Shown piece after piece: positions 6,722-53,685 of a stretch of 64,000 nt of DNA. Source of the stretch: Lentisphaerota bacterium (GTDB lineage: Bacteria; Verrucomicrobiota; Lentisphaeria; Victivallales; UBA1829); assembly GCA_015061915.1 (NCBI GenBank), contig SUVR01000002.1:60670-124669 (forward strand). The letters are read 5' to 3'. The stretch's first letter is position 1; every line of letters begins with the position of its first letter. The notes under the pieces were generated by a model, which was given only the letters and a program-made list of their open reading frames with translations, did not search any database and had not been told where the DNA came from. Made by a program: the position numbers and the translations under genes.

Positions 6722-8473
6722 ATGACGACGAAAAAAGAAATCGCGCCGGAAGCACCGGCACTGAAGAGCTACGTGGATGACAGCTTTACTGGCACCATGG
6801 CAGATCTTCTGAGTGGCAAAAACGAAGCCAAGAGTGAATTTGCAACCGAAACGATCGTGCACGGCAAGATCGTTGAAAAGCGTCCGGACTCTGTCCTGAT
6901 CGATATCGGTTACAAGGCGGAAGGTGAAGTTCCGGCTTCCGAATTCCGTAATTGGGAAGAAATCCAGGTCGGCGACGAAGTGGATGTGTTCCTGGAAGAA
7001 ATTGAAAACGAACGTAACATGCCCGGCATCAGCTTCATCAAGGCGAACTCCATCAAGTCCTGGCAGAAGATTACGTCTGAATACGGCGAAGGCAGCATCA
7101 TCAAGGGTCTCATGAAGCATCGCGTCAAAGGCGGTATCATCATCGACCTGTGCGGCATCGAAGCATTCCTCCCCGGCAGCCAGATCGATATCGGCCCGGT
7201 GAAGAACATGGACGATTTCATCGGCAAAGAATACGATTTCAAGATCCTGAAGATCAACCAGGATCGCCGCAACATCGTGGTTTCCCGCCGCGAACTGCTG
7301 GAAGAATCCCGCAAGGACCGCAGAGCTTCCCTCCTCAAGGAAATGGAAGTCGGTCAGCTGCGTAAGGGCTCCGTCAAGAACATCACGGACTTCGGTGCAT
7401 TCATCGATCTCGGCGGTGTGGACGGCCTGCTGCACATCACGGATATGAGCTGGGGCAGAATCTCCCACCCGAACGAAATGCTGGAAGTCGGTCAGGAAAT
7501 CGAAGTGATGATCCTGGACATCGACAATGCCAAGGAACGTGTCTCCCTCGGTCTCAAGCAGAAGAGCCACAATCCGTGGGACGATGTGGAAGCCAAGTAC
7601 GCGATCGGCAGCGTTGTCAAGGGTCACGTGGTCAACATTATGCCTTACGGTGCGTTCGTGGAAATCGAACAGGGCGTCGAAGGTCTGATCCACGTCTCCG
7701 AAATGAGCTGGACCAAGCGCGTCACCAAGGCTGGCGATGTGGTCAGCGTTGGCGAAGAAGTGGAAGCTGTTGTTCTTGACATCGACAAAAAAGGCAAGAA
7801 GATCAGCCTCGGTCTCCGTCAGAAGACCCGCAATCCGTGGGAAGTTCTGGCTGAAAAGTATCCGGTCGGCAGCAAGATCCACGGCAAAGTCCGCAACATG
7901 ACCAGCTACGGTGCATTCGTTGAAATCGAAAACGATATCGACGGTATGATCCACGTCTCCGATATGAGCTGGACCCGCAAGATCAACAACCCGAACGAAG
8001 TTCTCAAAGTCGGCGACGAAGTCGATGCCGTTATCCTGGACATCGATCCGCAGCAGCAGAGAATCAGCCTCGGCCTCAAGCAGACCGAAGTTGACCCCTG
8101 GTCCGACATCGAAACCTTCTACAAGATCGGCGAAGTTGTCAAGGGCAAAGTCACCAAGATCACTGCGTTCGGCGCATTTATCGAACTCTCCCACAAGATC
8201 GACGGTCTGGTCCACATTTCCCAGATCAGCAAGGATCGCGTGGAAAAAGTCAAAGATAAACTGCAGCTCAACGATGAGATCGAAGCCCGCGTCATCAAGA
8301 TCGACAAGGACGAACGCCGCATTGGGCTCAGCATCAAGGCTCTGGATGAAGACTTCTCCGAAGACGACATCAAGGCTGCCGGTGAAGAAGTTGCCGCTGC
8401 TCTCCGTCCCGGTGAAGACCTGGGCGATATGAGCCAGATCTTCGGCGCTCTCGACGGTCTCAAAGAAGACTGA
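6722..8473 (+). CDS. rpsA: 30S ribosomal protein S1
   Basis: 583 aa with six S1 (OB-fold) repeats. The motif G.V..I..FGAF(V/I)(D/E)(L/I)..G(V/I)(D/E)GL(I/L)H(I/V)S(D/E/Q) recurs through the protein. Confidence 0.95.
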   Translation: MTTKKEIAPEAPALKSYVDDSFTGTMADLLSGKNEAKSEFATETIVHGKIVEKRPDSVLIDIGYKAEGEVPASEFRNWEEIQVGDEVDVFLEEIENERNMPGISFIKANSIKSWQKITSEYGEGSIIKGLMKHRVKGGIIIDLCGIEAFLPGSQIDIGPVKNMDDFIGKEYDFKILKINQDRRNIVVSRRELLEESRKDRRASLLKEMEVGQLRKGSVKNITDFGAFIDLGGVDGLLHITDMSWGRISHPNEMLEVGQEIEVMILDIDNAKERVSLGLKQKSHNPWDDVEAKYAIGSVVKGHVVNIMPYGAFVEIEQGVEGLIHVSEMSWTKRVTKAGDVVSVGEEVEAVVLDIDKKGKKISLGLRQKTRNPWEVLAEKYPVGSKIHGKVRNMTSYGAFVEIENDIDGMIHVSDMSWTRKINNPNEVLKVGDEVDAVILDIDPQQQRISLGLKQTEVDPWSDIETFYKIGEVVKGKVTKITAFGAFIELSHKIDGLVHISQISKDRVEKVKDKLQLNDEIEARVIKIDKDERRIGLSIKALDEDFSEDDIKAAGEEVAAALRPGEDLGDMSQIFGALDGLKED

Positions 8474-10275: not shown

Positions 10276-10375
10276 CTGCTGCATCTCCATCATTCGTTGA
10301 TCATTAGTGAAATATAGACGCAGAATCGTAAAAAACAAGTCGAAAAATAAAAATAAAGCAGATGAGAACAACCGT

Positions 10376-10507
10376 GCGGGACGTCAGACTACCGGAGCAA
10401 GGGGATCCTTGCTCCGGTGCTTTTTCTCCGGTGCGGCGGCAACTGCCGCACCGGAAAAAAAGCGGGCAGCGCAGGTTGCACCTGCGCTGCCCGGTCTGAC
10501 GTCCCGC
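10376..10507. repeat. closed three-hairpin palindromic intergenic element (copy 1), contains terminators
   Basis: Perfect 13-bp outer IR: 10376-10388 GCGGGACGTCAGA with 10495-10507 TCTGACGTCCCGC. It encloses three hairpins at 10391-10418, 10428-10454 and 10463-10493, separated by T5 and A7 tracts. The third hairpin plus the T-run on the minus strand is the terminator of the FrhB-like gene. Confidence 0.85.
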
Positions 10508-10520
10508 GTCAATCGGCGGA

Positions 10521-13149: not shown

Positions 13150-13176
13150 TCAACAGACTTCCCCGCAGGAACATAA

Positions 13177-13351
13177 GCCCCGCAACGGGGATGCCGCCGC
13201 TTTTGTTTTTTGTGCGCCACAGAGCGCTCAAAAAACAAAAAAACGCCCTGCATTAAAAAAGCGCACCTCCACTGGTGCGCTTTTTTAATGCAGGGCGGGC
13301 GCCGGTCGCGCTTTCAGCGCGAGCGGCTGCGGCATCCCCGTCTTGTGGGGC
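13177..13351. repeat. closed three-hairpin palindromic intergenic element (copy 2), contains bidirectional terminator
   Basis: Imperfect outer stem 13177-13200 with 13323-13351 (12-bp perfect core CGGGGATGCCGC/GCGGCATCCCCG). It encloses hairpins at 13201-13240, 13244-13297 and 13306-13322. The 13244-13297 hairpin has a perfect 24-bp stem whose inner part is A6-GCGCACC...GGTGCGC-T6. Confidence 0.85.
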
Positions 13352-14398
13352 TTACTGTTCCGGACTGACACCGGCACCGAAAGAATCGATGTTCTGCAGG
13401 TACACGCCGGTACCTCTGGCAACCGCCAGAAGGGGGTCTTCCGCCACAAAGCAGTTCAGATTCATTTCCTCGGCAATGAGTTTATCCAGTCCCTTCAGCA
13501 GTGCACCACCGCCGGCAAGGAAAATCCCGTGATCACTCAAGTCGCCGCAGAGTTCCGGCGGACAGCGTTCCAATGTTGTCCGGACAGCCTCCACAATGCT
13601 TGTGACCGGTTCCAGGAGCCAACTGCGCACTTCCCGTGAAGTGATCTTGACCACTTTCGGCAGACCGGAAACAAGGTCGCGTCCTTTGATTTCCATTTCC
13701 GTTTCGCCGTTTTCGTCCGGGTAAACATTACCGATAGTGATCTTGATATCTTCCGCAGTCCGTTCACCGATCATCAGGTTGTAAACCCGCTTTACATTGC
13801 TGATGATCGCAAGGTCCATTTCATCACCGCCGACACGTACGCTGCGGCTGTCCACGATCCCGGCAAGGGAGATAATTGCCACTTCCGTAGTTCCGCCGCC
13901 GATATCCACGATCATGCTGCCGACGGGATCTTCAACAGGCAATCCGATCCCGATCGCAGCAGCCATCGGTTCTTCCAGCAGGATAACTTCACTCGCACCG
14001 GCATGAGTTGCCGTATCCTGCACGGCGCTTGTTTCCACTTCCGTGATCCCGGTGGGAACAGCGATCACGATACGGGGCTTTGCCAGGCGGCGGCGGGGAG
14101 AAACATATTTTTTTGCTTTTTCGATAAAGTAGCGGAGCATATGGCGGGTGATATTGATGTCAGCGATCACCCCGTCTTTCATCGGGCGGATCGCAGCAAT
14201 CGATCCCGGCGTTCTGCCGAGCATCATTTTTGCATCGACCCCGACAGCCAACACGCCGCCGGTGACCTTATTGATCGCCACAACGGAGGGTTCAGAAAGA
14301 ACAACACCTCTGTCCTTCACATATACCAGGCAGTTTGCCGTCCCGAGGTCGATCCCGATGTCGCTGGAAAAAAATCTTGCAAGCTTTTGATGTAACAT
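13352..14398 (-). CDS. mreB: rod shape-determining protein MreB
   Basis: 348 aa. Actin-like ATPase motifs DIGIDLGTANCLVYV and DIGGGTTEVAIISL, with a typical MreB C-terminus. Confidence 0.95.
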   Translation of the reverse strand: MLHQKLARFFSSDIGIDLGTANCLVYVKDRGVVLSEPSVVAINKVTGGVLAVGVDAKMMLGRTPGSIAAIRPMKDGVIADINITRHMLRYFIEKAKKYVSPRRRLAKPRIVIAVPTGITEVETSAVQDTATHAGASEVILLEEPMAAAIGIGLPVEDPVGSMIVDIGGGTTEVAIISLAGIVDSRSVRVGGDEMDLAIISNVKRVYNLMIGERTAEDIKITIGNVYPDENGETEMEIKGRDLVSGLPKVVKITSREVRSWLLEPVTSIVEAVRTTLERCPPELCGDLSDHGIFLAGGGALLKGLDKLIAEEMNLNCFVAEDPLLAVARGTGVYLQNIDSFGAGVSPEQ

Positions 14399-18049: not shown

Positions 18050-18157
18050 ATGGGCAGACAGTACAACAAGTACGAAAAAAGAGCACGCCGTAAACACTAC
18101 CTTCAGCGCGTGAAAGAAAGAATCAAAGAAGCGATCAAGAATGCAAAAAAGAAATAA
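18050..18157 (+). CDS. small highly basic protein (35 aa), hypothetical
   Basis: The ATG at 18050 is preceded by ACAGGAG with 8-nt spacing. Product: MGRQYNKYEKRARRKHYLQRVKERIKEAIKNAKKK. An AT-rich promoter-like region lies upstream. The longer track ORF (start 17966) lacks an RBS. Confidence 0.4.
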   Translation: MGRQYNKYEKRARRKHYLQRVKERIKEAIKNAKKK

Positions 18158-18297
18158 TTGATCTTTTCACAAGCTTCCGGTTGCCGGCAAACGGTAACCG
18201 GCGGCGGTTGTTGTTTGTATGACCGCCGGAACGGGGCGGTTCGGAAGCGGATCGCCCCTTTACTCTTTAAAACAGGACATCATTCAAGGAGCCTGCT

Positions 18298-19116
18298 ATG
18301 CAGAAAATTCATCCGACAGCAGTTATCGGCGAAAATGTAAAACTTGGTGAAAATGTTGAAATCGGTCCCTACTGCGTCATTGGCGACAATGTGGAAATCG
18401 GCAACAACTGCAAACTCATCTCCCAGTGCCATATCGGCGATCATACAACGATCGGCGATAACAATATTTTCTATCCCTTTGCCTCCATCGGCACGGATCC
18501 GGAAGACTATGCCTACGATCCGGCACAGGGTCCCTCCTTCACAAAAATCGGCAACAACAACAAGTTCCGTGAAGGTGTCACCGTAAACCGCGGTACTCAC
18601 GCCGGAACGACCACCGTGATCGGCGACGGCTGCTTCTTTATGGCGAATTCCCACGTTGCCCACAACTGCGTGGTCGGCAACAATGTGATCATGGTCGTCG
18701 GCTCTATGATCGCCGGTTATGTGGAAGTCGGTGACAAAGCGCTGCTTTCCGGCATTACCGCTGTTCACCAGTTCTGCCGTGTCGGCAGAATGGCTGTGAT
18801 CTCCGGCTGTTCCGCAATCAGTATGGACCTTCCGCCGTTTATGATCACCGCCGGCAGAAACGAAGGGATCAGCGGCTTCAACATCGTTGGTATGCGCAGA
18901 AGCGGCTTTGCTCCGGATACGATCCGCGCCGTGAAGAAGCTCTACGATATTTTCTTCCGTCAGGGACTCAGTATGCCCAATGCCATCGCCAGAGCAGAAG
19001 CAGAACTGCCCCAGCTGCCGGAAGTGGTGGAATTTCTGGATTTCATCAAGTCCGCCAAGCGCGGTGTTCTCCCCGGAGCCAACCGGAAGAACCGTACCAG
19101 CTCTCCGGAAGCATAA
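18298..19116 (+). CDS. lpxA: acyl-ACP--UDP-N-acetylglucosamine O-acyltransferase
   Basis: 272 aa. Left-handed beta-helix hexapeptide repeats from the N-terminus (IHPTAVIGENVKLGENVEIGPYCVIGDNVEIGNNCKL) and an LpxA-type helical C-terminal domain. Confidence 0.9.
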   Translation: MQKIHPTAVIGENVKLGENVEIGPYCVIGDNVEIGNNCKLISQCHIGDHTTIGDNNIFYPFASIGTDPEDYAYDPAQGPSFTKIGNNNKFREGVTVNRGTHAGTTTVIGDGCFFMANSHVAHNCVVGNNVIMVVGSMIAGYVEVGDKALLSGITAVHQFCRVGRMAVISGCSAISMDLPPFMITAGRNEGISGFNIVGMRRSGFAPDTIRAVKKLYDIFFRQGLSMPNAIARAEAELPQLPEVVEFLDFIKSAKRGVLPGANRKNRTSSPEA

Positions 19117-30842: not shown

Positions 30843-30879
30843 AAGCCCGTTCAGCACAAACTGAACGGGCTTTTCTGTT
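30843..30879 (+). terminator. intrinsic terminator
   Basis: AAGCCCGTTCAG-cacaaa-CTGAACGGGCTT forms a 12-bp stem that runs into TTTTCTGTT. Confidence 0.8.
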
Positions 30880-40679: not shown

Positions 40680-41609
40680 ATGAAAATCGCAGCAGCAACC
40701 GACTACATCGGCAGCACCGGCTGTCCGGAACGCCCCCTCCGTCTCCTCGCTGAAGCAGGATTCACCCATCTTCACTGGTGCCATCAGTGGTGTACCGATT
40801 TTCTCTACAGCCAGCATGAAATCAATGCATACAAGAAAATGCTCAAAAATTTCGGTTTGACCCTGCTGGACATTCACGGCAGTCAGGGGCAGGAGAAATG
40901 CTGGTACTCCGAACTGGAATATCAGCGCAAAGCGGGCGTGGAACTGGTCATCAACCGCATCGAGATGATGACCGAACTGGAAGCCGAAGAAGGCGGCGCT
41001 CTTATGATGCACTTCCCCGTGTTCCATGCGTGGGATAAAGATAACGCCGAAGTTTTGGCGGCAACCCGAAGGAAACTGGATATCTTCAAGCGCACACTGG
41101 ATGATCTTCTGCCGGTCCTCGATATGCACGGAAGAAAGATCGCGCTCGAAAATATGTGGGGCGACAACTGGGATGCCATGGATGAAATTCTTGCCGAATA
41201 TCCGGCACAGTACATCGGGATCTGCTACGACTCCGGTCACGCAAACAGCAAATCCGTCGGCGGCAAGCCCTTCGATATGGGCTACTGCCAAATGGACCGT
41301 CTGGAAAAGCAGAAAGACCGTCTGGAAGCGTTGCATCTGCACGATAACAACGGCGACGGCGACCAGCATCAGCCCCCGTTCTACGGCAATGTGGACTGGG
41401 AACGGCTGGCAAAGATCATCGCCACCAGTAAATCCTACACCCGTCCTGTCAGTTTTGAAATGACCATCAGCAATACGCCGTTCCTGGATAAAGAGCGTCA
41501 GGAAAAAGGTGAACCGCAGACCGATAAAGCCGTTCTCGCATTCCTCAAGGATGCTCACGAACGGTGCGAAAAATTCGGCAGAATGGTCGAAGCGGCGGAG
41601 GCAAAATGA
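40680..41609 (+). CDS. sugar phosphate isomerase/epimerase (xylose isomerase-like TIM barrel)
   Basis: 309 aa. Typical metal-ligand context (IALENMWG, YDSGHAN, LHLHDNNGDGDQHQPP). Confidence 0.7.
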   Translation: MKIAAATDYIGSTGCPERPLRLLAEAGFTHLHWCHQWCTDFLYSQHEINAYKKMLKNFGLTLLDIHGSQGQEKCWYSELEYQRKAGVELVINRIEMMTELEAEEGGALMMHFPVFHAWDKDNAEVLAATRRKLDIFKRTLDDLLPVLDMHGRKIALENMWGDNWDAMDEILAEYPAQYIGICYDSGHANSKSVGGKPFDMGYCQMDRLEKQKDRLEALHLHDNNGDGDQHQPPFYGNVDWERLAKIIATSKSYTRPVSFEMTISNTPFLDKERQEKGEPQTDKAVLAFLKDAHERCEKFGRMVEAAEAK

Positions 41610-43804
41610 ACCGGGTCAGCAACTCCTGGAAACTGGAAGGCTCCACCGTCCTCACGGACAACGGGACCTTCCTGATGGATGGCGCGGGCTCTGCCGTTAC
41701 CACATTGAAACTGGATCAGCCCCAAGCTATGCCCGTCCGGATCAGCTGCGAAAGCCGCGCAGTCGATGCCATCGGAAACAATGCTTACGAATACTCCGTT
41801 CTGGCGAAAGTCGTCTTTACCGACGGAACCACCAACCGTCTGGACTGGACGCCCTTCAATGACGGAACGCTGTTCTATGCGGACTACGCTCCCTTTCTCA
41901 AGGGCAGTCACGACTGGCAGAAACGCAGTTTTCTCCTGATCTACGAAAAACCGATCCGGGATGTGCAGCTGGAAGTGCTGTTCACCCGTCATACCGGCAG
42001 CGCCGAGTTCCGGGATCTGACCGTGGAAGACTTTGCAAAGGATCCGGCGGTTCCGCGCTTCGATACCTTCACCATCGCCGGGGACCTGCCGCAGGGAGCT
42101 TTCCTCCGGGATTGCCGGACCGGCAGTTTCGCAGTGGATGGCGTCCGTATGGAACTGAAGGAGGAAAACGGTACGATCCACGCCCATCTGGAGCTGGGAG
42201 ATCAGGCGGATCGCTGTTTCACATTCTACTGGACGAAAGAGATTGCCGCCGATGCCGTCTCTTTCCTGCCCGCAATGGATGAGGAAACAGAGACTGCAAA
42301 CACGCCCAAAGACTATTTTCAGGTCTGCACCTGGCGGGTCGGGGCAAATGGTCTCGCCTCCAAAGCACCGTTCGCCGCCGTCAGCACGGGCGATGCAGTG
42401 GGGTTCGTTCCCCGGTGTCCGGTCTTCGGACGGGTGGGATACAACTCCATTTTCAAGCGTCTGTATGTGGCGTTCGATGTAGCACTGACCGCCGAACGCC
42501 CGTATGCCGATCTGACTTTTGTTTCTTATCGTTTTGAGCCGGAACACGGCTACCGCAGCGCTCTCTGCACTTATTACGGTCTGTTCCCCGAATTTTACAA
42601 GACGCGGATCCGGGAACAGGGGCTGTGGATGCCGTTCGCCAGTATCAAAAATCTGCCTGATCCGGAAGATTTTCACTTCAAGTTCAAAGAAGGGCACGGG
42701 GTCGGCGACTACGAGTGGGAACTGGAACACGGGATCCATACCTTCGCCTACACCGAACCCATGACCCAATGGATCGATATGCCCGCAGATGTGCCGCGGA
42801 CATACGAAAACGCCAAAATGTGGCGCCGGGAAAAGATCAGTTCCGAACAGGCAAAGGTCATTGATGATTCCGTTATGACCGACGAGACCGGCAAAGAGAT
42901 TATGCTCGCCACCGAACTGCCCTGGTGTCACGGCGTAGTGTGGAGCGTCAACTCCATGCCCGGATACGGCGATATGGAATGGAAACAAAAGACGATTCCC
43001 GCAGGTTTTCACGAATATATCGACAGCGCAGAAGGTTATGTGACGGCAGATATTTCACACCGCCGCGACCACTTTTCACGCTGTCCGCTGGCTCTGACCT
43101 TCAGCGCCGATTCCTTTGTGCCCGGTATCTGGAAGGGATATATCGCTTACGAATACGCCCGGGAACCCCATGACCGGCTCCTGCCCCAGGGCAGATATGT
43201 CATGGCGAACGGCACACCCGGCAGTATGTGGTTCCTGCCCGCAATGCTGGATGTTGCCGGCACCGAAACGGACTGGAACATCGGCGGCAGCTGGAGCCCC
43301 ATGACCGTACAGGAACTGCGGTACCGTCGCGCTGCTTGCGCCGATAAGCCGTACTGCTTCCTCATGAACTCCGACTTTTCAAAATTCACCCACGAAATGG
43401 TGGAAAAATATATGAAACGGTCCCTCGTGTTCGGCATGTTCCCCGGCTTCTTCAGCGCAAACGCCGCCAGCGGTCATTATTTCGCCAATCCCTCCCTCTA
43501 TGAACGGGACAGAGATCTGTTCAAACGGTATCTCCCCTTCATCCAGCAGGCAACCGCCGAAGGCTGGGAACCGGTGACATACGCCAAAGCCGACGATCCG
43601 GCGATCGCACTGGAACGGTACGGCACAAAGTATGTTACCGCCCTGAACGATTCCGGCGAAACAAGAACAGTCCGGCTGACATTCGATGATAAACTGGACG
43701 TCACCGGCTTTACCGATGTGCTGACCGGAAAAACATACCGCAAGGATGAACCCATTACGCTGGATGGCGAAGATGTGGCAATGCTGGAGCTGATCAAGGC
43801 GTAA
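41606..43804 (+). CDS. large cytoplasmic hypothetical protein (732 aa), possibly carbohydrate-active
   Basis: The ATG at 41606 overlaps the upstream stop (ATGA). There is an N-terminal beta-sandwich-like region and no signal peptide. No family recognised. The functional hint comes only from context (TIM-barrel isomerase upstream, cupin convergent). Confidence 0.55.
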   Translation: MNRVSNSWKLEGSTVLTDNGTFLMDGAGSAVTTLKLDQPQAMPVRISCESRAVDAIGNNAYEYSVLAKVVFTDGTTNRLDWTPFNDGTLFYADYAPFLKGSHDWQKRSFLLIYEKPIRDVQLEVLFTRHTGSAEFRDLTVEDFAKDPAVPRFDTFTIAGDLPQGAFLRDCRTGSFAVDGVRMELKEENGTIHAHLELGDQADRCFTFYWTKEIAADAVSFLPAMDEETETANTPKDYFQVCTWRVGANGLASKAPFAAVSTGDAVGFVPRCPVFGRVGYNSIFKRLYVAFDVALTAERPYADLTFVSYRFEPEHGYRSALCTYYGLFPEFYKTRIREQGLWMPFASIKNLPDPEDFHFKFKEGHGVGDYEWELEHGIHTFAYTEPMTQWIDMPADVPRTYENAKMWRREKISSEQAKVIDDSVMTDETGKEIMLATELPWCHGVVWSVNSMPGYGDMEWKQKTIPAGFHEYIDSAEGYVTADISHRRDHFSRCPLALTFSADSFVPGIWKGYIAYEYAREPHDRLLPQGRYVMANGTPGSMWFLPAMLDVAGTETDWNIGGSWSPMTVQELRYRRAACADKPYCFLMNSDFSKFTHEMVEKYMKRSLVFGMFPGFFSANAASGHYFANPSLYERDRDLFKRYLPFIQQATAEGWEPVTYAKADDPAIALERYGTKYVTALNDSGETRTVRLTFDDKLDVTGFTDVLTGKTYRKDEPITLDGEDVAMLELIKA

Positions 43805-43821
43805 GATGTACGCGAAAAATA

Positions 43822-43949
43822 GCGGAACGGCGCAGTCGCCGGAGCAACGCTCCGGCATACCGCCCACAAAAAAAAGCGCAGGCAAAAACGCCTGCGCTTT
43901 TTCTGTGGAGCGGCGGCAGCCCCTGCGGGGCTGGACTGCGCCGTTCCGC
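43822..43949. repeat. closed three-hairpin palindromic intergenic element (copy 3), contains bidirectional terminator
   Basis: Perfect 16-bp outer IR 43822-43837 GCGGAACGGCGCAGTC with 43934-43949 GACTGCGCCGTTCCGC. It encloses hairpins at 43838-43856, 43860-43913 (core A8-GCGCAGGC...GCCTGCGC-T5) and 43917-43933. Confidence 0.85.
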
Positions 43950-46459: not shown

Positions 46460-47307
46460 TTCACATAGCCTCCATTCATTGCTGCTGCAAAAGCACGCAT
46501 TGCATCTTCGGCAGCTCCCGGTTCATGGACTCGCACAAATTCAACTTTTTTCTCCGTCAGATATGCCAACACTCCTGCTGTGGCAAAATCGCGTTCACAC
46601 GGCTTTTTTTCTCTGCCGAGAAAGGATTTCCGTGAAATCCCATAGTACAATGGCAACCCGTGTTTCCGGAACTGTTCCGCATCCCGGACCAACTGCCAGT
46701 TTGCCGTGACAGTCTTCGCAAACCCGACACCCGGATCCAGTGTGATCCGGTCACGCCGGATCCCTGCCCCGACCGCAAGATCAATCTGCTTCTCAAAGAA
46801 TGAATTGATCTCTCCGATCAGATCCTGATAGAGAAGATTCTCCTCATTCTGCATCGTCTCCGGCGTCCCACGCATATGCATTAACACCAGACCGGCATCA
46901 TATTTTGCAATCACTTGTGCCATATCCGGATCAAATTGCAGTCCGCTGACATCATTGATCACATCTGCGCCGGCATCCAAAACGGCTTCCGCCACGGCTG
47001 CTTTCCGCGTATCCACGCAGATCACGCAGTCCGGCTGCCGTTCCCGCAAGGACCGGATCACCGGCACGAGCCGTTCAATCTCGGTCTGCACCGGTTGAGC
47101 GGCAGCTCCAGGCCGGGTGGATTCCGCTCCGATGTCGATCGCATCGGCACCGGAACTCAACATCTCTTCTGCGTGAGCCACAGCGCCTTCCACCGTCCGG
47201 TACGCGCCGCCATCGCTGAACGAGTCATCCGTCAGGTTCAGGATCCCGATGATTTTCGGGACCCCGCTGCCCGACGTTGCAAAGAACCGGTCAGTCCTGC
47301 GCATCAT
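46456..47307 (-). CDS. folP: dihydropteroate synthase
   Basis: GILNLTDDSFSDGG, DIGAESTRPGA and VINDVSG motifs. The likely start is ATG-ATG at 47307/47304, which overlaps the gyrA 3' end by about 17 nt. The track start at 47391 is probably too long. Confidence 0.88.
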   Translation of the reverse strand: MMRRTDRFFATSGSGVPKIIGILNLTDDSFSDGGAYRTVEGAVAHAEEMLSSGADAIDIGAESTRPGAAAQPVQTEIERLVPVIRSLRERQPDCVICVDTRKAAVAEAVLDAGADVINDVSGLQFDPDMAQVIAKYDAGLVLMHMRGTPETMQNEENLLYQDLIGEINSFFEKQIDLAVGAGIRRDRITLDPGVGFAKTVTANWQLVRDAEQFRKHGLPLYYGISRKSFLGREKKPCERDFATAGVLAYLTEKKVEFVRVHEPGAAEDAMRAFAAAMNGGYVK

Positions 47308-50029
47308 CAGCGTCTTCTCCGCTGCCTTCCGCTTCGACTTCGTAGATCTCTTCGCCGTTTTCATCAAAGTGCTGTGCGGCGTAGTCCACACCGGAACCGG
47401 CCTTCACAACAAACTTTTCTTCTTCGGTCTCTTCCGGCTTGTTTTCCACTTCCACCTGAACAATGCAGGAGACGCTGGTAATGCGGTCGTTCTTGCGTAG
47501 GTTCATGATGCGGACGCCCTTGGAATTTCTGCCCACCTTGCGGATCTCGCTGACGGGGATACGGGTGATCTGACCGCGTTCCGTGGTGATCAGCAGTTCA
47601 TCGTCTTCCTTCACGCGCAGGGCAGCCACAACGGTTTCACCTTCATCCAGGTTCATGTTCTTGACGCCCTTGGCGCCGCGGCGGGTCAGGCGGTACTTAT
47701 CCACATAGCTGCGCTTACCCATACCGCCGCTGGTCACGACCAGCAGCTGGGGCTTGCCGTTATCTTCTTCCGTTTCCGCATCATCATCGGTATCGGCGGC
47801 GTCTTCGTTCACATCATCTGCCACATCGTCCGCCACATCATCGGCGGGCAGTTCTGCATCGTCATCAATGGGTGCCGCGTTGAGGGCAGCTTCCGCATTT
47901 TCGCCCGGCACAACTTCCATACTGACGATATAGTCGTCTTCGATTTTGAAGCGGATCCCGGTAACACCGCGGGCAGCTCTGCCCATACTGCGGATGTCAG
48001 ATTCCACGAAGCGGCAAGCCATACCCTTGGCGGTGGAGAGGATCACTTCATCCGTACCACCGGCAAGTTCTGCACCGATCAGGTCGTCGCCTTCCTCGAT
48101 GATGAGAGCGCGGAGTCCCACATTACGCAGATTCTTGAACTGGGAAAGGGCAGTCTTCTTCACAACGCCGTTGCGGGTCGCCATGACAATGGACATATTT
48201 TCCATATCGAACATGGATTTGTTCAGGGTCAGCATGGCCTTGATCTGTTCGCCCGGTTCGATCTTGATCAGGTTCACGATCGCTTTGCCGTTGCCGGTAC
48301 GGACACCTTCCGGGATGTCATACACGTTCAGCCAGTACATGAAGCCCTTGTCCGTAAAGAAGAAGATGATGTCGTGGCTGTCCGCATTGAACAGGTGCGC
48401 CACATGGTCCTCATCCTTCGTCTTCATACCCACAATGCCCACGCCGCCGCGATGCTGAGTCTGGTAGGTATCTGCGGGCACGCGCTTGATGTAACCGGTG
48501 TCGGAGACCGTGATCACGCAGGAATGACGGGGGATCAGGTCGGCAATATCCAGGTCGCCGTCATCGTACGTGATTTCCGTGCGGCGCTTGTCGGCGTAAC
48601 GTTCCTTCACATAGAGCAGTTCTTCCTTGATGAGCTGGATGCGCATTTCACGGCTGGCAAGCAGTTCTTTCAGGTAGGTGATCTGCTTCATGACTTCATC
48701 GTAGTCCGCCTGCAGGTCTTCGATGGCAAGACCGGTCAGCTGATGCAGGCGCATATCCAGAATAGCGCCGACCTGGATCCGGGTCAGACCGAAACGATCG
48801 ATCAACGCCGTTGCCGCCGCTTCCTTCGTGCGGGATTCACGGATGATCTTCACCACTTCGTCAATATTATTGACCGCAATGAGCAAGCCTTCGAGGATAT
48901 GAGCGCGTGCTTCCGCTTTCTTCAGTTCAAACTGGGCGCGGCGGGTCACCACTTCAAAACGGTGATCCAGGAACGCCTGAAGGATCTGGGGCAGATTCAT
49001 CACACGGGGACGGTTGTGGTCAACGACCAGCATATTGCAGCCCATAACAGATTCCATTTGAGTGTGGGTGTAAAGCTGGTTCAGGATCACACTGCCCATA
49101 AAGCCGCGCTTGATGTCGATCACAACACGGATCCCCTTTTCTTTGGAGGATTCGTCACGAAGTCCGGAAATACCGTTGATCTTCTTTTCGCCGACCAGTT
49201 CCGCGATCTTTTTGACCATCATTTCCTTATTGACCGCATAGGGGATCTCCGTCACAATGATCTGTTCCTGATTTCCCTTTTCCACGATCTCCGCCTTGGC
49301 ACGAATCTTGATCACACCGTGTCCCGTTTCATACAGGCTGCGGATCGGATCGATCCCGCAGATGATGCCGCCGGTGGGGAAGTCCGGACCGGGCAGACAG
49401 CTCATCAGTTCGCGGACAGTCGCCGTGGGATGTTCCAGCATATAAATCGTGGCATCAATGGTTTCGCCAAGATTGTGTGTGGGAATGCAGGTTGCCATCC
49501 CGACGCCGATCCCCACGCTGCCGTTGACCAGCAGGTTCGGGAACTTGGCAGGCAGGACTTCCGGTTCTGTGTTGGCTTCGTCGAAGGTCGGCATCATATT
49601 GACCGTATCCTTCTCAATGTCGTTGAGCAGTTCTTCCGTCAGACGCTCCATACGACATTCCGTATAACGGTAGGCAGCCGGGGGGTCACCGTCGATAGAA
49701 CCGAAGTTTCCCTGACCTTCCACCAGCGGCTCACGCATGGAGAAGTCCTGCGCCATACGAACGAGCGTATCGTACACAGAAGCATCACCGTGGGGGTGGT
49801 AGTTACCCAGCACTTCCCCGACCACCTTCGCACACTTGACCGTGGCATGAGATTTGGTCAGACCAAGCTGGCGCATGGCATAAAGGATACGACGGTTACA
49901 GGGCTTCATACCGTCACGGACATCCGGGATGGCACGGCCGATATTCACACTCAGAGAATACTGCAGGTACGCAGTATGCATGATATCCTCGATGTTGACG
50001 AGAAAATCATTGGGGCTGTTTTCGCTCAT
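47291..50029 (-). CDS. gyrA: DNA gyrase subunit A
   Basis: 912 aa. Active-site region [10 protein letters not shown] and QRDR-like [25 protein letters not shown], with C-terminal beta-pinwheel repeats. An acidic insertion and an acidic tail are present. Confidence 0.97.
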
Positions 50030-50171
50030 GTTTTTCCTTCCTTACGGGTTATATTTTTGTTTTGCTATTTTTAATATTATAGATAATATACACCCGTGCG
50101 CGCGACCGCGCAAGCGCGAAAAACATAAGGATGACAAAAAAAATGAAAAAAAATCAGCCGTCCGATACCGC

Positions 50172-50309
50172 GAGGCGCAGCGCAGCCCTTTTTTTTGCTG
50201 CGGCGACAGCGCCGCAGCAAAAAAACGCCTCCGCTTGCAGAACAGATTGCTGTTCTGCAAGCGGAGGCGGCACCGGAGCCAAGCTCCGGTGCGGGCTGCG
50301 CCGCGCCTC
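50172..50309. repeat. closed three-hairpin palindromic intergenic element (copy 4), contains dnaJ terminator
   Basis: 17-bp outer IR (1 mismatch) 50172-50188 GAGGCGCAGCGCAGCCC with 50293-50309 GGGCTGCGCCGCGCCTC. It encloses T8-hairpin-A7 (50189-50225), a perfect 20-bp stem (50226-50269) and GCACCGGAGC-caa-GCTCCGGTGC (50270-50292). Confidence 0.85.
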
Positions 50310-50312
50310 TGT

Positions 50313-51491
50313 TTACAAGCCGAAAGCGGCAAAAAGCGCCACAAATTTATTCAGAAACTTCTTGAAGAAACCGGTCCCGACGGGATGAGCTTCGCTATCC
50401 TTTTTTTCATCAAAAGTTGCTTCGTACTGACGGAGCAAATCCTTCTGTTCCGGGGTCAGTTTTTTAGGTACTTCAATGGTAAAACGGAGGTAGTGGGTAC
50501 CAAAGCTTCCACGCCGTCTCAACGACGGCATACCTTTATTTGCAACCCGCTGAACATCACCGTTTTGTGTTCCAGAAGGAACCATAAATTTCATCGGTCC
50601 GTGAATGGTGGGGATATCGATTTCTCCCCCCAGTGCAGCAACGGTAAATTTGATCGGAACATCGCAATAAATATCATCGCCTTCCCGTTCAAAAAGTTCA
50701 TGATCGCGGACACTGATATCCACATAAAGATCGCCGTCTCTGCCGCCCCGGAGACCGGGTTCACCTTCACCTGCCACACGCAGTCTGGAACCGGTATCCA
50801 CACCGGCGGGAATATGCACTTCCACGGAGCGTTTCAAGCGTACATGACCGGTGGCATTACACTTCTTACAGGGCTTTTCCGGAACGGACCCGGCGCCGCC
50901 GCAATCCGGACATTCCTGCATCATCGTAAAGAATCCCTGAGAGATCCCCACCTGTCCGGTCCCTTTACAGCGTTTGCAGGGCACTCTGACACCGGATTCG
51001 CAACCGGTACCGTGGCACGCCTCGCAGGCGCCCTGACGTACAAATTCCAGCTTCTTTGTAACACCGTTCACGGCATCCATAAAATCGATTTCCAACGGGT
51101 AGCGCAGGTCGTTTCCTGCCATGGGGGCATTGGGATCGCGTCTTCTTCCGCCACCGCCGAAAAAGGACTCAAAACCGCCCATTCCGCCGCCACCGCCGAA
51201 GAACTGGTTGAAGATATCAAAGGGATCGCCGCTGAAACCGCCGCCTCCGCCGCGTCCGGCGCCGGAGAAGGCATCTTCGCCGTACTGGTCATACAACTTG
51301 CGCTTTTCCGGATTGGAAAGTACATCGTACGCCTGTGCGATCTTCTTGAACTTTTCTTCCGCTTCTTTGTTGCCCTGATTTTTGTCCGGGTGATACTTGA
51401 TGGCAAGTTTGCGGTATGCTTTCTTGATCGCGGTCTCGTCTGCATCCACCGGGATCTCAAGCAGATCGTAGTATGTGGTATCAACAGCCAT
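50313..51491 (-). CDS. dnaJ: molecular chaperone DnaJ
   Basis: J-domain [32 protein letters not shown], a G/F-rich region and four CxxCxGxG zinc-finger repeats. The start overlaps the htpG stop (TAATG). Confidence 0.95.
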
Positions 51492-53398
51492 TATTCTGCA
51501 CTCAATTCTTTCTGGATGGATTCCGTCATCAGCAGCACGGTACGGCGGGCGAATTTCGCCGGATCAGGCAGGGTTGCGCCTTCGCTGATCAACGCCTGAT
51601 CGTAAAGCAGTTCCGCATAGTCCGGCAGGCTGGCGGCAGAAGGATCTTTTTCATACAGACTCTTCAGCGCACCGATCAGGGGGCTTTCCCCGTTCAGTTC
51701 CAGGATCCGTTTCACATCCGGGCTTTCCTGCCCCATCGCTTTGAAAAGACGCTGCATGGAAACGGAGGGATCGTAGTCATCGCCCACCAGACAGCAGGGA
51801 CTTTCCGTCAGACGGGAAGAGAAGCGCACATCTTTGACCTTGTCTTCCAGTGTTTTCTTCAAAAACTCCACAAGTTCTTTGTTTTCTTCGGTTTCCTTCT
51901 TCGTCTTTTCGTCCAGTTCCTTCTGTACGGATTCATCAAACTTGACTTCGCCCTTGAGGACGGAAACCAGATCTTTTTCCGCATACTTTGCGATGTCATC
52001 CATGATAATTTCGTCCATGGGTTCATACAGGAACAGCACATCGTACCCCTGCTTGCGGAACATCTCCAGCTGGGGAGAGAACTCCAGCGCTTCCCGGCGG
52101 TCGCCGGTGATGTAATAGATCGCCTTCTGGGTGGCGGGCATTGCATCGGAGTACTCTTTGAGCGTCATCAACTTACCGCTGTTCATGGATTCAAAAAGGA
52201 GCAGATCCTGCAGTTTTTCTTTGTTATTGAAATCCGTATGAACACCGCCCTTGATCATGGGGCTGAATTCCTTGTAAAATTCCTCGTAAGCCTCCCGGTC
52301 CTTCGTGAGCATTTTATCCAGTTCAGAGAGAACACGCTTCACAATGCTCTTGCTGATGCGGGCGATCTGGGGATTATCCTGCAGCGTCTCGCGGGAAACA
52401 TTCAGCGGCAGATCGCTGGAATCCACCACGCCGGCAACAAAGCCCATATATTCCGGCAGCAGACCGGGGCAGTTGTCCGTGATGAACACGCGGCGGACAT
52501 AAAGCTGGATCTGTTTGTGATCCTTGTTCATACCCATCCGGTAGCTCATAGGCATTTTGCCGGCGATGTAAAGCAGCGACTTGAATTCCGAAGCACCTTC
52601 CGCACTGAAACTGATCCGGCGGGCGGGCTTGTTGTAGTCCATACTGATGTGCTGATAGAACTGGTCGTATTCTTCTTCCGTCACTTCACTTTCCGGACGC
52701 AGCCAGATAGCTTTCATGGTGTTCAGCGTACTGTCTTCCACCTCTTCCTTGCCGTCTTTGGTCACGGTATGTTTCATGCGGATGGGGTATTCGATAAAGT
52801 CGGAATACTTGCGGATGAGTTCCGCCACACGCCAGTAGTCCAGATAAGCCTCAAAATCTTCTTTGAGATAGAGGGTGATCCGGGTACCGGGCGCATCCTT
52901 GCTGACTTCTTCGATGGAGAAATCGTTTTCGCCGTCGCTGATCCACTTCCACGCCTGCGCTTCGCCGTCCTTCTTCGTTTCGACGGTGACTTTATCCGCC
53001 GCCATGAAGGCAGAGTAGAACCCGACCCCGAACTGTCCGATGAGTTCCGGTGCGCTGACAGAGCCTTCTTCCTTGGCCTTTTCCAGCGCTTCGGTAAACG
53101 CTTTGGTTCCGGAGTGGGCGATCGTCCCCAGGTTTTCGATCAGTTCATCCCGGTTCATCCCCACGCCGTTATCGGAGATGATGAGGGTTTTTGTGTCTTT
53201 ATCCGCTTCGATCCGGATCTCCCAATCCCGGATCATATCCTGCTGTGTGAGGGAGAGAAAACGGGCTTTATCAATAGCGTCTGCCGCATTGGCGACCAGT
53301 TCCCGCAGGAAAATATCTTTGTTGGAATAGACGGAATGGATGACCAGCGAAAGCAGTTCGCGGATCTCCGCTTTGAATTGTAAATTTTCAGTTGCCAT
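51491..53398 (-). CDS. htpG: molecular chaperone HtpG (Hsp90)
   Basis: N-terminal [34 protein letters not shown], the GHKL ATPase motif. The ATG at 53398 is preceded by AAGGAGG. The track start at 53437 is less likely. Confidence 0.95.
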
Positions 53399-53424
53399 GA
53401 TTACCTCCTTGCATTTTTGTACGA

Positions 53425-53685
53425 TCAGTGCTTGCAACCGCAGTTTTCGCCGCAGGTATGAGCGTGTTCACAGGCAGGGGCTTTGCTGGGGGATGCGTTG
53501 CTGTGAGCATAGTCCGTGCAGTAGAAACCGGTACCTTTGAAGATGATCCCGGCGCCGGTGCCGATCTTGCGTTTCAGCGATTCTTTTCCGCATTCCGGAC
53601 ACACCTTCAGATGATCTTCAGACATCTTCTGAAATTTGTGAAAACCGTGACCACATTCATTGCAGACATATTCGTACGTTGGCAT
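53425..53685 (-). CDS. FmdB-family zinc-ribbon protein
   Basis: MPTYEYVCNECGHGFHKFQKMSEDHLKVCPECG is the canonical CxxC...CxxC FmdB N-terminus. The tail is Cys/His-rich. Confidence 0.8.
   Translation of the reverse strand: MPTYEYVCNECGHGFHKFQKMSEDHLKVCPECGKESLKRKIGTGAGIIFKGTGFYCTDYAHSNASPSKAPACEHAHTCGENCGCKH

Follow-up and report, generated by a model that had tools for sequence, protein, structure and literature searches.

Organization of the dnaJ-gyrA intergenic region

The window analysed here is a stretch of 64,000 nt from a Lentisphaerota bacterium (assembly GCA_015061915.1, contig SUVR01000002.1, positions 60,670 to 124,669 of the forward strand), and coordinates are positions within it unless another locus is named. 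On its minus strand htpG, of the HSP90 family (51491..53437; assigned from Pfam and gene calls), is followed by dnaJ (50313..51491; 392 aa; Pfam DnaJ, DnaJ_C and DnaJ_CXXCXGXG), the start of which overlaps the htpG stop. The next gene downstream of dnaJ is gyrA (47291..50029, minus strand; 912 aa; assigned from Pfam). A conserved block upstream of gyrA (50070..50115, minus strand) contains a promoter candidate, TTGCGC-N17-TATATT, with a GC palindrome in its spacer; the block is near-identical in two related loci, L001 and L166, and closely similar in a third, L165. The candidate had been placed near 50070-50100 in an earlier note made from the letters alone. It is indeed present on the minus strand, at 50113-50085, which is slightly outside that range, and it scores below the threshold of a consensus promoter scan.

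The 138 bases that follow dnaJ, at 50172-50309, form a near-perfectly self-complementary four-armed cross, which we refer to as c4. Its outer arms, GAGGCGCAGCGCAGCCC (50172..50188) and GGGCTGCGCCGCGCCTC (50293..50309), were identified by inverted-repeat search and by folding, and constitute a 17-nt inverted repeat that is 94% complementary, with one mismatch; the right arm ends 3 nt from the dnaJ stop codon. Enclosed by these arms are three hairpins of 16, 20 and 10 bp that abut one another: a perfect 16-bp hairpin, T7-GCTGCGGCG-ACAG-CGCCGCAGC-A7 (50190..50225), a perfect 20-bp hairpin with a 4-nt loop (50226..50269, minus strand), and a perfect 10-bp hairpin with a 3-nt loop, GCACCGGAGC-CAA-GCTCCGGTGC (50270..50292). 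T50189, the eighth T of the run, is the sole unpaired junction base. The earlier note had described the same outer repeat with its single mismatch, the same three enclosed hairpins and the same 3-nt spacing from the dnaJ reading frame, and our searches reproduce all of its coordinates for the element. The minimum-free-energy folds of both strands give the same closed four-way junction. Folded as RNA the element reaches -129.1 kcal/mol (z = -15.2) and as DNA -84.7 kcal/mol (z = -15.7), and in each case none of 200 shuffled sequences folds as well.

c4 contains the predicted terminator of the upstream operon

In the 12 kb scanned for terminators (42-54 kb), the top-ranking site is the minus strand of 50269-50226, with 20 pairs, 13 of them GC, a loop of 4 nt and the tail TTTTTTTGCT. 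The three abutting hairpins start 21 nt past the dnaJ stop and the 20-bp hairpin begins 44 nt past it; read on the minus strand, the T7 at the 5′ side of the 16-bp hairpin (50225-50219) is at the same time the U-tract directly after the 20-bp stem. c4 has the features of an intrinsic terminator, namely a GC-rich stem-loop and then a T-tract on the strand of the upstream gene, just past the stop codon. It also has those of a hairpin-cluster terminator, at least two hairpins less than 15 nt apart and within ~80 nt of the stop, as defined in PMC8355165; the outer closing stem falls outside that definition. The hairpin and its T7 are retained in both orthologous loci that carry the element, L001 and L165. 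At the same position L166 has an ordinary 12-bp hairpin followed by T8, with the same gyrA promoter block. c4 does not have the layout of a bidirectional terminator, since in its A/T-flanked hairpin the 5′ tract is T7 and the 3′ tract A7, and since its genes are arranged in tandem.

Based on these observations, c4 most likely contains the predicted terminator of a Zn-ribbon/htpG/dnaJ transcription unit, in keeping with the earlier proposal that the 20-bp hairpin and U7 end dnaJ transcription. RNA polymerase arriving from dnaJ would transcribe the outer arm, then the 10-bp hairpin and then the perfect 20-bp hairpin, and with U7 right behind the latter, termination would most likely occur at that point. 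c4 would then act as the 3′-end module of the unit, and gyrA would be transcribed from its own conserved promoter ~110 nt further on.

A family of closed three-hairpin elements

Sliding folds across the window revealed four regions with the closed architecture, on which three different detectors agree; the numbering of c4 as a fourth copy in the earlier note is therefore correct. The first, c1 (10375..10508), has an outer stem of 16 bp, hairpins of 12, 20 and 13 bp and no unpaired junction base, and lies 12 nt past the stop of an FrhB-like gene on the minus strand. c2 (13168..13360, core 13185-13341) has hairpins of 16, 24 and 11 bp and an imperfect distal stem, and is situated between convergent thioesterase (+) and mreB (-) genes, with its distal outer stem overlapping the mreB stop codon. 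c3 (43822..43949), with an outer stem of 16 bp and hairpins of 8, 22 and 7 bp, lies between a convergent pair consisting of a 746-aa gene (+) and a cupin gene (-). A further copy, c5, was found ~5 kb beyond the window end on the same JGI contig (L199 18561-18724). Relatives carry L167a and L167b (L167 6130-6226 and 7407-7566), the second with a 36-bp outer stem, and L193x (L193 9136-9286), which directly follows a thioesterase gene and so occupies the place of c2 with unrelated sequence. Elements of this architecture are found at mutually unrelated loci: FrhB-like/hypothetical, thioesterase/mreB, hypothetical/cupin and thrC/rhamnosidase.

Each of the nine distinct elements has exactly three inner hairpins, of which the middle one is the longest (11-24 bp); the detector allowed two or more branches, yet every element had three. 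Outer stems range from 13 to 36 bp and whole elements from 100 to 190 bp, and the number of unpaired junction bases is 0-3 in most elements, 6 in c3 and 10 in c2. Their density in this ruminant-gut Lentisphaeria genome, of which the analysis covered ~83 kb, and in its near relatives is about one element per 16 kb.

Gene contexts and internal layouts vary. c1 and c4 both follow the stop of a minus-strand gene and precede an AT-rich region and the next minus-strand gene, and c2, c3, c5, L167a and L193x occupy the gap between convergent stop codons. In c1 and c5 the order is GC hairpin, T-run...A-run hairpin, GC hairpin, so that each direction meets a GC hairpin and then T's. In c2, c3 and L193x a central A-run/GC-stem/T-run hairpin is lengthened by a further GC clamp; the middle hairpin of c2 is of the bidirectional terminator type, and both c2 and c3 place an A-tract/hairpin/T-tract between convergent genes, as expected of bidirectional terminators. 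L167b, flanked by the divergent azlC and Zn-ribbon genes, has no T-run, which argues against a family made up of terminators alone.

The closed multi-hairpin detector, which in its final form uses an energy-density cut-off, found no match when run on 10 dinucleotide-shuffled versions of the window, on 77 kb of the next-nearest relatives or on unrelated loci, bacterial and viral, totalling 1.92 Mb. A false match inside an araC-like gene (L193 10178-10300) was removed by the cut-off. A covariance model, R1, built from c4 alone, recovered all nine distinct elements at full length in 193 kb of clade loci (E 1e-17 to 2e-4) and, when run over a further 1.97 Mb from other loci, gave no match with E < 0.9. 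In the alignment fitted by R1, which leans towards the structure it is fitted to and for which slid and shuffled controls give the scale, 94.6% of cells hold standard pairs, compared with 54% for shuffles and 37-52% for slid partners; all 63 of the 63 pairs vary on both sides. Repeat finders that rely on sequence can miss such a family, even where a structural profile delimits it sharply.

Neither alignment nor pairwise local alignments produced a consensus across copies at different loci, and for most pairs the similarity does not exceed that of shuffled sequences. Among c1-c4, local similarity that is weak but significant (z 3.4-4.3) was detected for four of the six possible pairs, a level that cross-genome pairs do not reach. 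A CCGGAGC-loop-GCTCCGG hairpin is common to c1, c3 and c4, and c3 and c4 agree at ~12-13 of 16 positions in their outer arms, each of which is followed by the CCGGAGC hairpin. The window has a single occurrence of the exact 16-mer GCGCAGTCGCCGGAGC, within c3, and the 199 loci searched likewise have one, in the outer arm of the L165 orthologue of c4. The other shared 7-8-mers are GC-rich triplet-like words and words from terminator A/T-runs. The shared 16-mer and the similarity among c1-c4 point to dispersal or exchange between loci and not to a purely in-situ origin. Two candidate family signatures, CAGYC...CCGGAG and GCGGAACGGCGCAGTC, were rejected as unusable for a consensus, their enrichment coming almost entirely from the elements themselves, and 22 matches to the outer-arm/CCGGAGC motif in viral contigs were dismissed as chance, all lying in GC-rich coding sequence without a hairpin context.

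The predicted dnaJ terminator lies, then, within a compound palindrome whose family is lineage-specific, having been seen in a single group of uncultured gut Lentisphaeria and nowhere else; in this family the shape is conserved and the sequence turns over. The family is defined by shape, with hints of common descent or of exchange between copies.

Evolution of the element at the dnaJ-gyrA locus

The closest public genomes are metagenome-assembled genomes (MAGs) of uncultured Lentisphaeria/Victivallales from ruminant guts, among them L001, a water-deer cecum MAG with a DnaJ 96% identical and DNA 89% identical to the window. In L001 and L165 (DnaJ 89% identical) an element of the same architecture follows dnaJ. 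L166 (DnaJ 81%) keeps dnaJ, the conserved promoter block and gyrA, and the closed element is absent. L169 (DnaJ 76%) also keeps the dnaJ-gyrA arrangement, with other hairpins instead of the closed element, and in L167 (DnaJ 78%) a different gene lies downstream of dnaJ. Past the element, L001 and L165 have sequence similar to the 3′ arm of the L166 hairpin; in the window the likeness is less clear. In L165 the resemblance to the 3′ arm of the L166 terminator extends into the distal outer stem, which suggests that the element was built from local sequence.

The c4 orthologues were compared arm by arm through edit distances, the MAFFT alignment not being structural. In all three, the junction-proximal 10 bp of the outer stem are constant, and the distal part differs while remaining complementary: GAGGCG/CGCCTC in the window, GGG/CCC in L001 and CGCCGG/CCGGCG in L165. 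Opposing arms are separated by 0-2 edits within a genome, compared with 0-6 per arm between genomes. For the arms of the 20-bp hairpin the figures are 0 within and 4-6 between genomes, mirrored indels included.

L201, which is 94.7% identical to the window at the nucleotide level over 12.9 kb, carries a c3 orthologue in which the GC stems are all identical to those of the window and one loop base differs. A differing A-run makes the middle hairpin of L201 a perfect palindrome, and the 6-nt loop of that hairpin is exactly reverse-complemented, reading AAAAAC in the window and GTTTTT in L201. P0197, first taken as a 76% identical protein, turned out on comparison of the DNA to be a strain with 94.7% identity.

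Indications of a DNA-level process

Several features bear on whether the closed form is a property of RNA or of DNA. G·T pairs are few over the nine elements (plus strand, 8 of 539; minus strand, 14 of 542; ~2%), and the two strands of the elements are equally stable when folded. Over the tandem copies the sense-strand G·U bias is 7 versus 3, which is not significant. A transcript ending at U7 would contain neither the third hairpin nor the 3′ outer arm, so that the closed form would be absent from the main RNA product. Together with the exact loop inversion, these observations favour a process acting on DNA, and we infer that the closed architecture is mainly a property of the DNA and not of the terminated RNA.

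One mutational process in line with this pattern is template switching, which makes and repairs perfect stems in a single event (PMC8794818) and homogenises and enlarges the arms of inverted repeats (PMC13100816). The likeness to the mutations described in those reports lies in arms that change together, in mirrored indels and in the exact reverse-complement flip of a loop; the difference is that single stems were the product there, and a closed three-hairpin product recurs here. In the literature on repeats, palindromes and terminators we found no description of such a recurrent product. We lean, with some reserve, towards the view that c4 is a terminator within a lineage-specific compound palindrome, and that this palindrome took its shape at the DNA level, probably through template switching. 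The arms would be kept Watson-Crick complementary, and reshaped, through reverse-complement copying from one arm to the other at replication, template switching would homogenise and expand them, and selection would maintain a working terminator inside the element. By extension of the cited reports, template switching would also build the closed three-hairpin form.

Template switching alone does not predict three hairpins every time, and the mirrored changes in the arms could also be explained by strong selection on pairing. As to the number of hairpins, we propose that the seed was a pair of back-to-back terminators (GC hairpin, T-run, A-run, GC hairpin), which would naturally provide three hairpins and would later have been closed by outward growth of the palindrome. 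The proposal is a good fit for c1 and c5 and a poorer one for c2, c3 and L167b.

Alternative explanations

The constancy of three hairpins could be read differently, as the mark of a hitherto undescribed class defined by structure and not by sequence. Such perfect four-way-junction palindromes, each an outer stem with three hairpins, would be generated and maintained by the lineage at the DNA level and act as bidirectional barriers to transcription and topology that are recognised through their junction or cruciform. The recogniser could be a Holliday-junction-binding or -resolving protein, HU, a topoisomerase or a structure-specific transposase. If this were true, the fixed number would reflect the requirement for a stacked 4H junction and would not be an accident of terminator arrangement; we regard this reading as tentative, and doubtful on balance.

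Slightly less probable, in our judgement, is that the elements are non-autonomous mobile elements in the manner of MITEs, REP/BIME or REPINs. The outer inverted repeat would then serve a transposase encoded elsewhere, as its terminal repeat or its recognition hairpin, and copies would have been inserted at or into terminators and diverged fast. The distribution is consistent with such an origin: dispersed, extragenic, restricted to a lineage, at a density of ~1 per 16 kb, and present after dnaJ in L001 and L165 and absent from L166 with the same flanking genes. The 16-mer common only to c3 and the L165 orthologue of c4, the likeness of the c3 and c4 outer arms with the hairpin that follows each, and the significant local similarity of four of the c1-c4 pairs are also in its favour. 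The similarity to REP, BIME and REPIN sequences extends to the GC-rich palindromes at gene 3′ ends or between convergent genes and to the mosaic of hairpin modules. REPs, however, measure 20-40 bp, share a consensus throughout the genome and carry a tag, GTAG or CGTC (PMC3733652). No such consensus of a 20-40 bp imperfect palindrome was found among our copies, which are mostly at shuffle level and reach pairwise z values of at most 4.3, and both tags, GTAG/CTAC and CGTC/GACG, are missing from c4; CGTC is present in the outer arm of c1. REPs are linked to RAYT transposases. In the present elements conservation extends to the branched architecture and not to the sequence; neither a RAYT-type (Y1 transposase) domain nor any other transposase-like Pfam domain was detected, whether in the tested ORFs or in gene calls covering much of the rest of the window.

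The comparison with MITEs leads to a similar result. Outer inverted repeats of 13-36 bp, of the kind that terminate MITEs, are present at every copy, and in having an outer inverted repeat, a size of 100-190 bp and an intergenic location the elements resemble the Correia-type MITEs of Neisseria. Correia-type elements may affect termination and RNase III processing. In contrast to them, the present elements have no target-site duplication and no conserved terminal or internal sequence, and the interior consists wholly of perfect hairpins. No target-site duplication was found at any copy; direct reading of the flanks of c1, c3, c4, L167a, L167b and L193x revealed no direct repeat. Pairwise local alignment detected no near-identical copies at different loci, and blastn against plasmids and phages gave no match. 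The continuity of the L165 outer stem with the homology to the L166 terminator 3′ arm argues further against insertion and suggests that the element was built locally.

Selection for the four-way fold in RNA is a somewhat weaker candidate again, and one that we think improbable. The fold could block 3′ exonucleases, be cut by RNase III so as to separate the dnaJ and gyrA messages, or be a protein-binding 3′UTR element, with the compact junction forming in read-through or full-length transcripts, a role of the kind proposed for REP and Correia elements. The elements sit in 3′ UTRs and fold very stably as RNA, their stems of 20-36 bp have sufficient length for RNase III, and the wobble pairs of c4 and L001 favour G·U on the sense strand, by 5 to 0. 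REPs, moreover, have been described as terminator and stabiliser together (bioRxiv 10.64898/2026.03.23.713779). Against this, the bias of the wobble pairs in c1 is the opposite, G·U amounts to only ~2% overall with both strands folding equally well, a transcript that ends at U7 would never include the third hairpin or the 3′ outer arm, and the exact inversion of the c3 loop is a DNA event. Nor does any Rfam family match at threshold.

The earlier note had suggested a special link between c4, gyrA and supercoiling, with a supercoiling-sensitive cruciform specifically insulating the heat-shock operon from the gyrA promoter. c4 does lie between dnaJ and the conserved promoter block, and perfect inverted repeats with loops of 3-4 nt form cruciforms well. 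The same architecture, however, recurs away from topoisomerase genes, at four further loci of this genome and at three loci of relatives, and L166 and L169 retain dnaJ-gyrA without the closed element, L166 together with the promoter block. The link to gyrA is not borne out by these comparisons, and we consider insulation of this kind highly improbable. Short-read contigs tend to break at these elements, and an assembly artefact or chance palindrome can nonetheless be set aside almost entirely, given an identical c4 locus in assemblies of three JGI samples and one from ENA, all four independent, orthologues of the same architecture in an NCBI MAG and a Logan assembly, folding z values of -15 and the absence of matches in shuffles.

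Relation to known elements

Among known systems, terminators are one of those closest to c4. Hairpin clusters function as terminators, two-hairpin clusters being the commonest and frequency falling with cluster size (PMC8355165); c4 is like them in having several hairpins less than 15 nt apart and within ~80 nt of the stop, and like intrinsic terminators in general in its GC-rich hairpin and T-run just past the stop codon. The stems of Bacillus cereus terminators, like those described here, evolve through compensated changes (PMC5381666). Unlike intrinsic and cluster terminators, the elements have a long outer stem that closes the cluster into a four-way junction, and their hairpins are extended by GC clamps past the A/T tracts; there are always three hairpins where cluster sizes otherwise vary (PMC8355165), and one member is without a T-run and away from a gene end. 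For REP-type palindromes, roles in both termination and mRNA stabilisation have been proposed (bioRxiv 10.64898/2026.03.23.713779; PMC3333891).

Other known structures share the shape of c4 and nothing more. In the T-shaped ITR of AAV, and in retrons with their a1/a2 stem, an outer stem closes two or three inner hairpins. The AAV ITR is the end of a viral genome and a retron msr/msd requires an adjacent reverse transcriptase gene; c4 has dnaJ and gyrA as its neighbours, and no reverse transcriptase adjoins it. A search of the window with Rfam 15 gave no match at gathering score, with only sub-threshold matches to generic hairpins at 50100-50380, and ARAGORN detected no tRNA or tmRNA. The literature on repeats, palindromes and terminators describes hairpin-cluster terminators, REP/BIME/REPIN sequences and MITEs, and we found no closed three-hairpin element in it. 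c4 fits best among the extragenic palindromic/terminator elements, as a new structural variant that is conserved in shape and variable in sequence and whose arms evolve in concert.

If shaping by template switching is the correct reading, the process would build, repair and enlarge complex structures beyond single stems at the DNA level, with terminators as seeds, and the lineage would be a natural test case of it. Approximately 1 in 4-5 operon ends in this genome would bear a perfect four-way junction, which raises testable questions of cruciform formation, of junction-binding proteins and of how the lineage tolerates long palindromes. For annotation, it is useful that a covariance model from a single sequence recovered every member and nothing else in ~2 Mb. 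For metagenomics, the elements matter in that they break short-read contigs and in that gene callers run false ORFs through them. The genome also contains plain terminators, for example at 30843-30872, and an open cluster of three hairpins, without an outer stem, is present at 18177-18260.

The gyrA upstream region

Upstream of gyrA, the minus-strand block GCTTGCGCGGTCGCGCGCACGGGTGTATATTATCTATAATATTAAA (50070–50115) is near-identical in L001, a relative with an orthologue of the dnaJ–gyrA element (c4, 50172–50309), and in L166, which has the same gene order with a plain hairpin and T8 instead. It is closely similar in L165, another relative carrying the c4 orthologue; unlike the block itself, the surrounding intergenic DNA diverges in this comparison. 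The block contains TTGCGC-N17-TATATT (50113–50085, minus strand) and, further on, a perfect TATAAT. Its spacer contains a GC palindrome, GCGCG-N-TCGCGC, possibly an operator or a supercoiling-sensitive spacer. Two runs of the A8 type (AAAAAAAATG, 1.9 repeats; 50131–50154), which read as T-runs on the minus strand, sit between c4 and this block. T-runs are found at the corresponding position in L001, L165 and L166. These runs may be leftovers of the ancestral terminator tail, or a UP-like element.

Palindromes, coding sequence and contig ends

The palindromes reach right up to coding sequence and slightly into it. In L001 the outer stem of c4 begins immediately at the dnaJ stop codon, and the outer stem of c2 overlaps, with its imperfect distal portion (13346–13360), the mreB stop codon (13352–13354) and last codons. 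Elements are also crossed by stop-free reading frames. In L167, a locus of a further relative, such a frame spans 7387–8016, and the public gene call there (Zn_ribbon_8, 209 aa) engulfs the element at 7407–7566; in other genomes the genuine gene encodes about 86 aa. The window ORFs across c4 (50042–50344, minus strand; 50131–50388, plus strand) are of the same type as this over-extended call.

Three short-read contigs of relatives (L193 11900–11972, L194 2130–2203 and L200 3443–3446) stop exactly at the expected element position, one of them within a GC hairpin, 52 nt past the FrhB-like stop, and another 3 nt past the stop codon of the orthologue of the 746-aa gene. De Bruijn assemblies seem to be broken by the palindromes. 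The 639-aa 'FrhB-like' protein P0122 (L193 10001–11920) is not a fusion protein: its ORF has been extended across an araC-like gene (L193 9722–10600, minus strand) in antisense orientation.

An open three-hairpin cluster with no outer stem (18177–18260) follows a small, very basic plus-strand ORF (18050–18157; MGRQYNKYEKRARRKHYLQRVKERIKEAIKNAKKK) and precedes an lpxA-like gene (18298–19116). It may be an unclosed counterpart of the closed elements.

Neighbouring genes

A conserved trio, noted at 51491–53685 in the window and present in all relatives examined (L166, L167 and L169), consists of htpG, dnaJ and a small Zn_ribbon_8 gene, with the htpG stop overlapped by the dnaJ start. The 746-aa protein (41564–43804), which lacks any Pfam domain, shares only 76% identity with its counterpart in strain L201 (10001–12217) versus 94.7% for the DNA over 12.9 kb, a disparity suggesting that this gene has frameshifts or contains a segment of local divergence.
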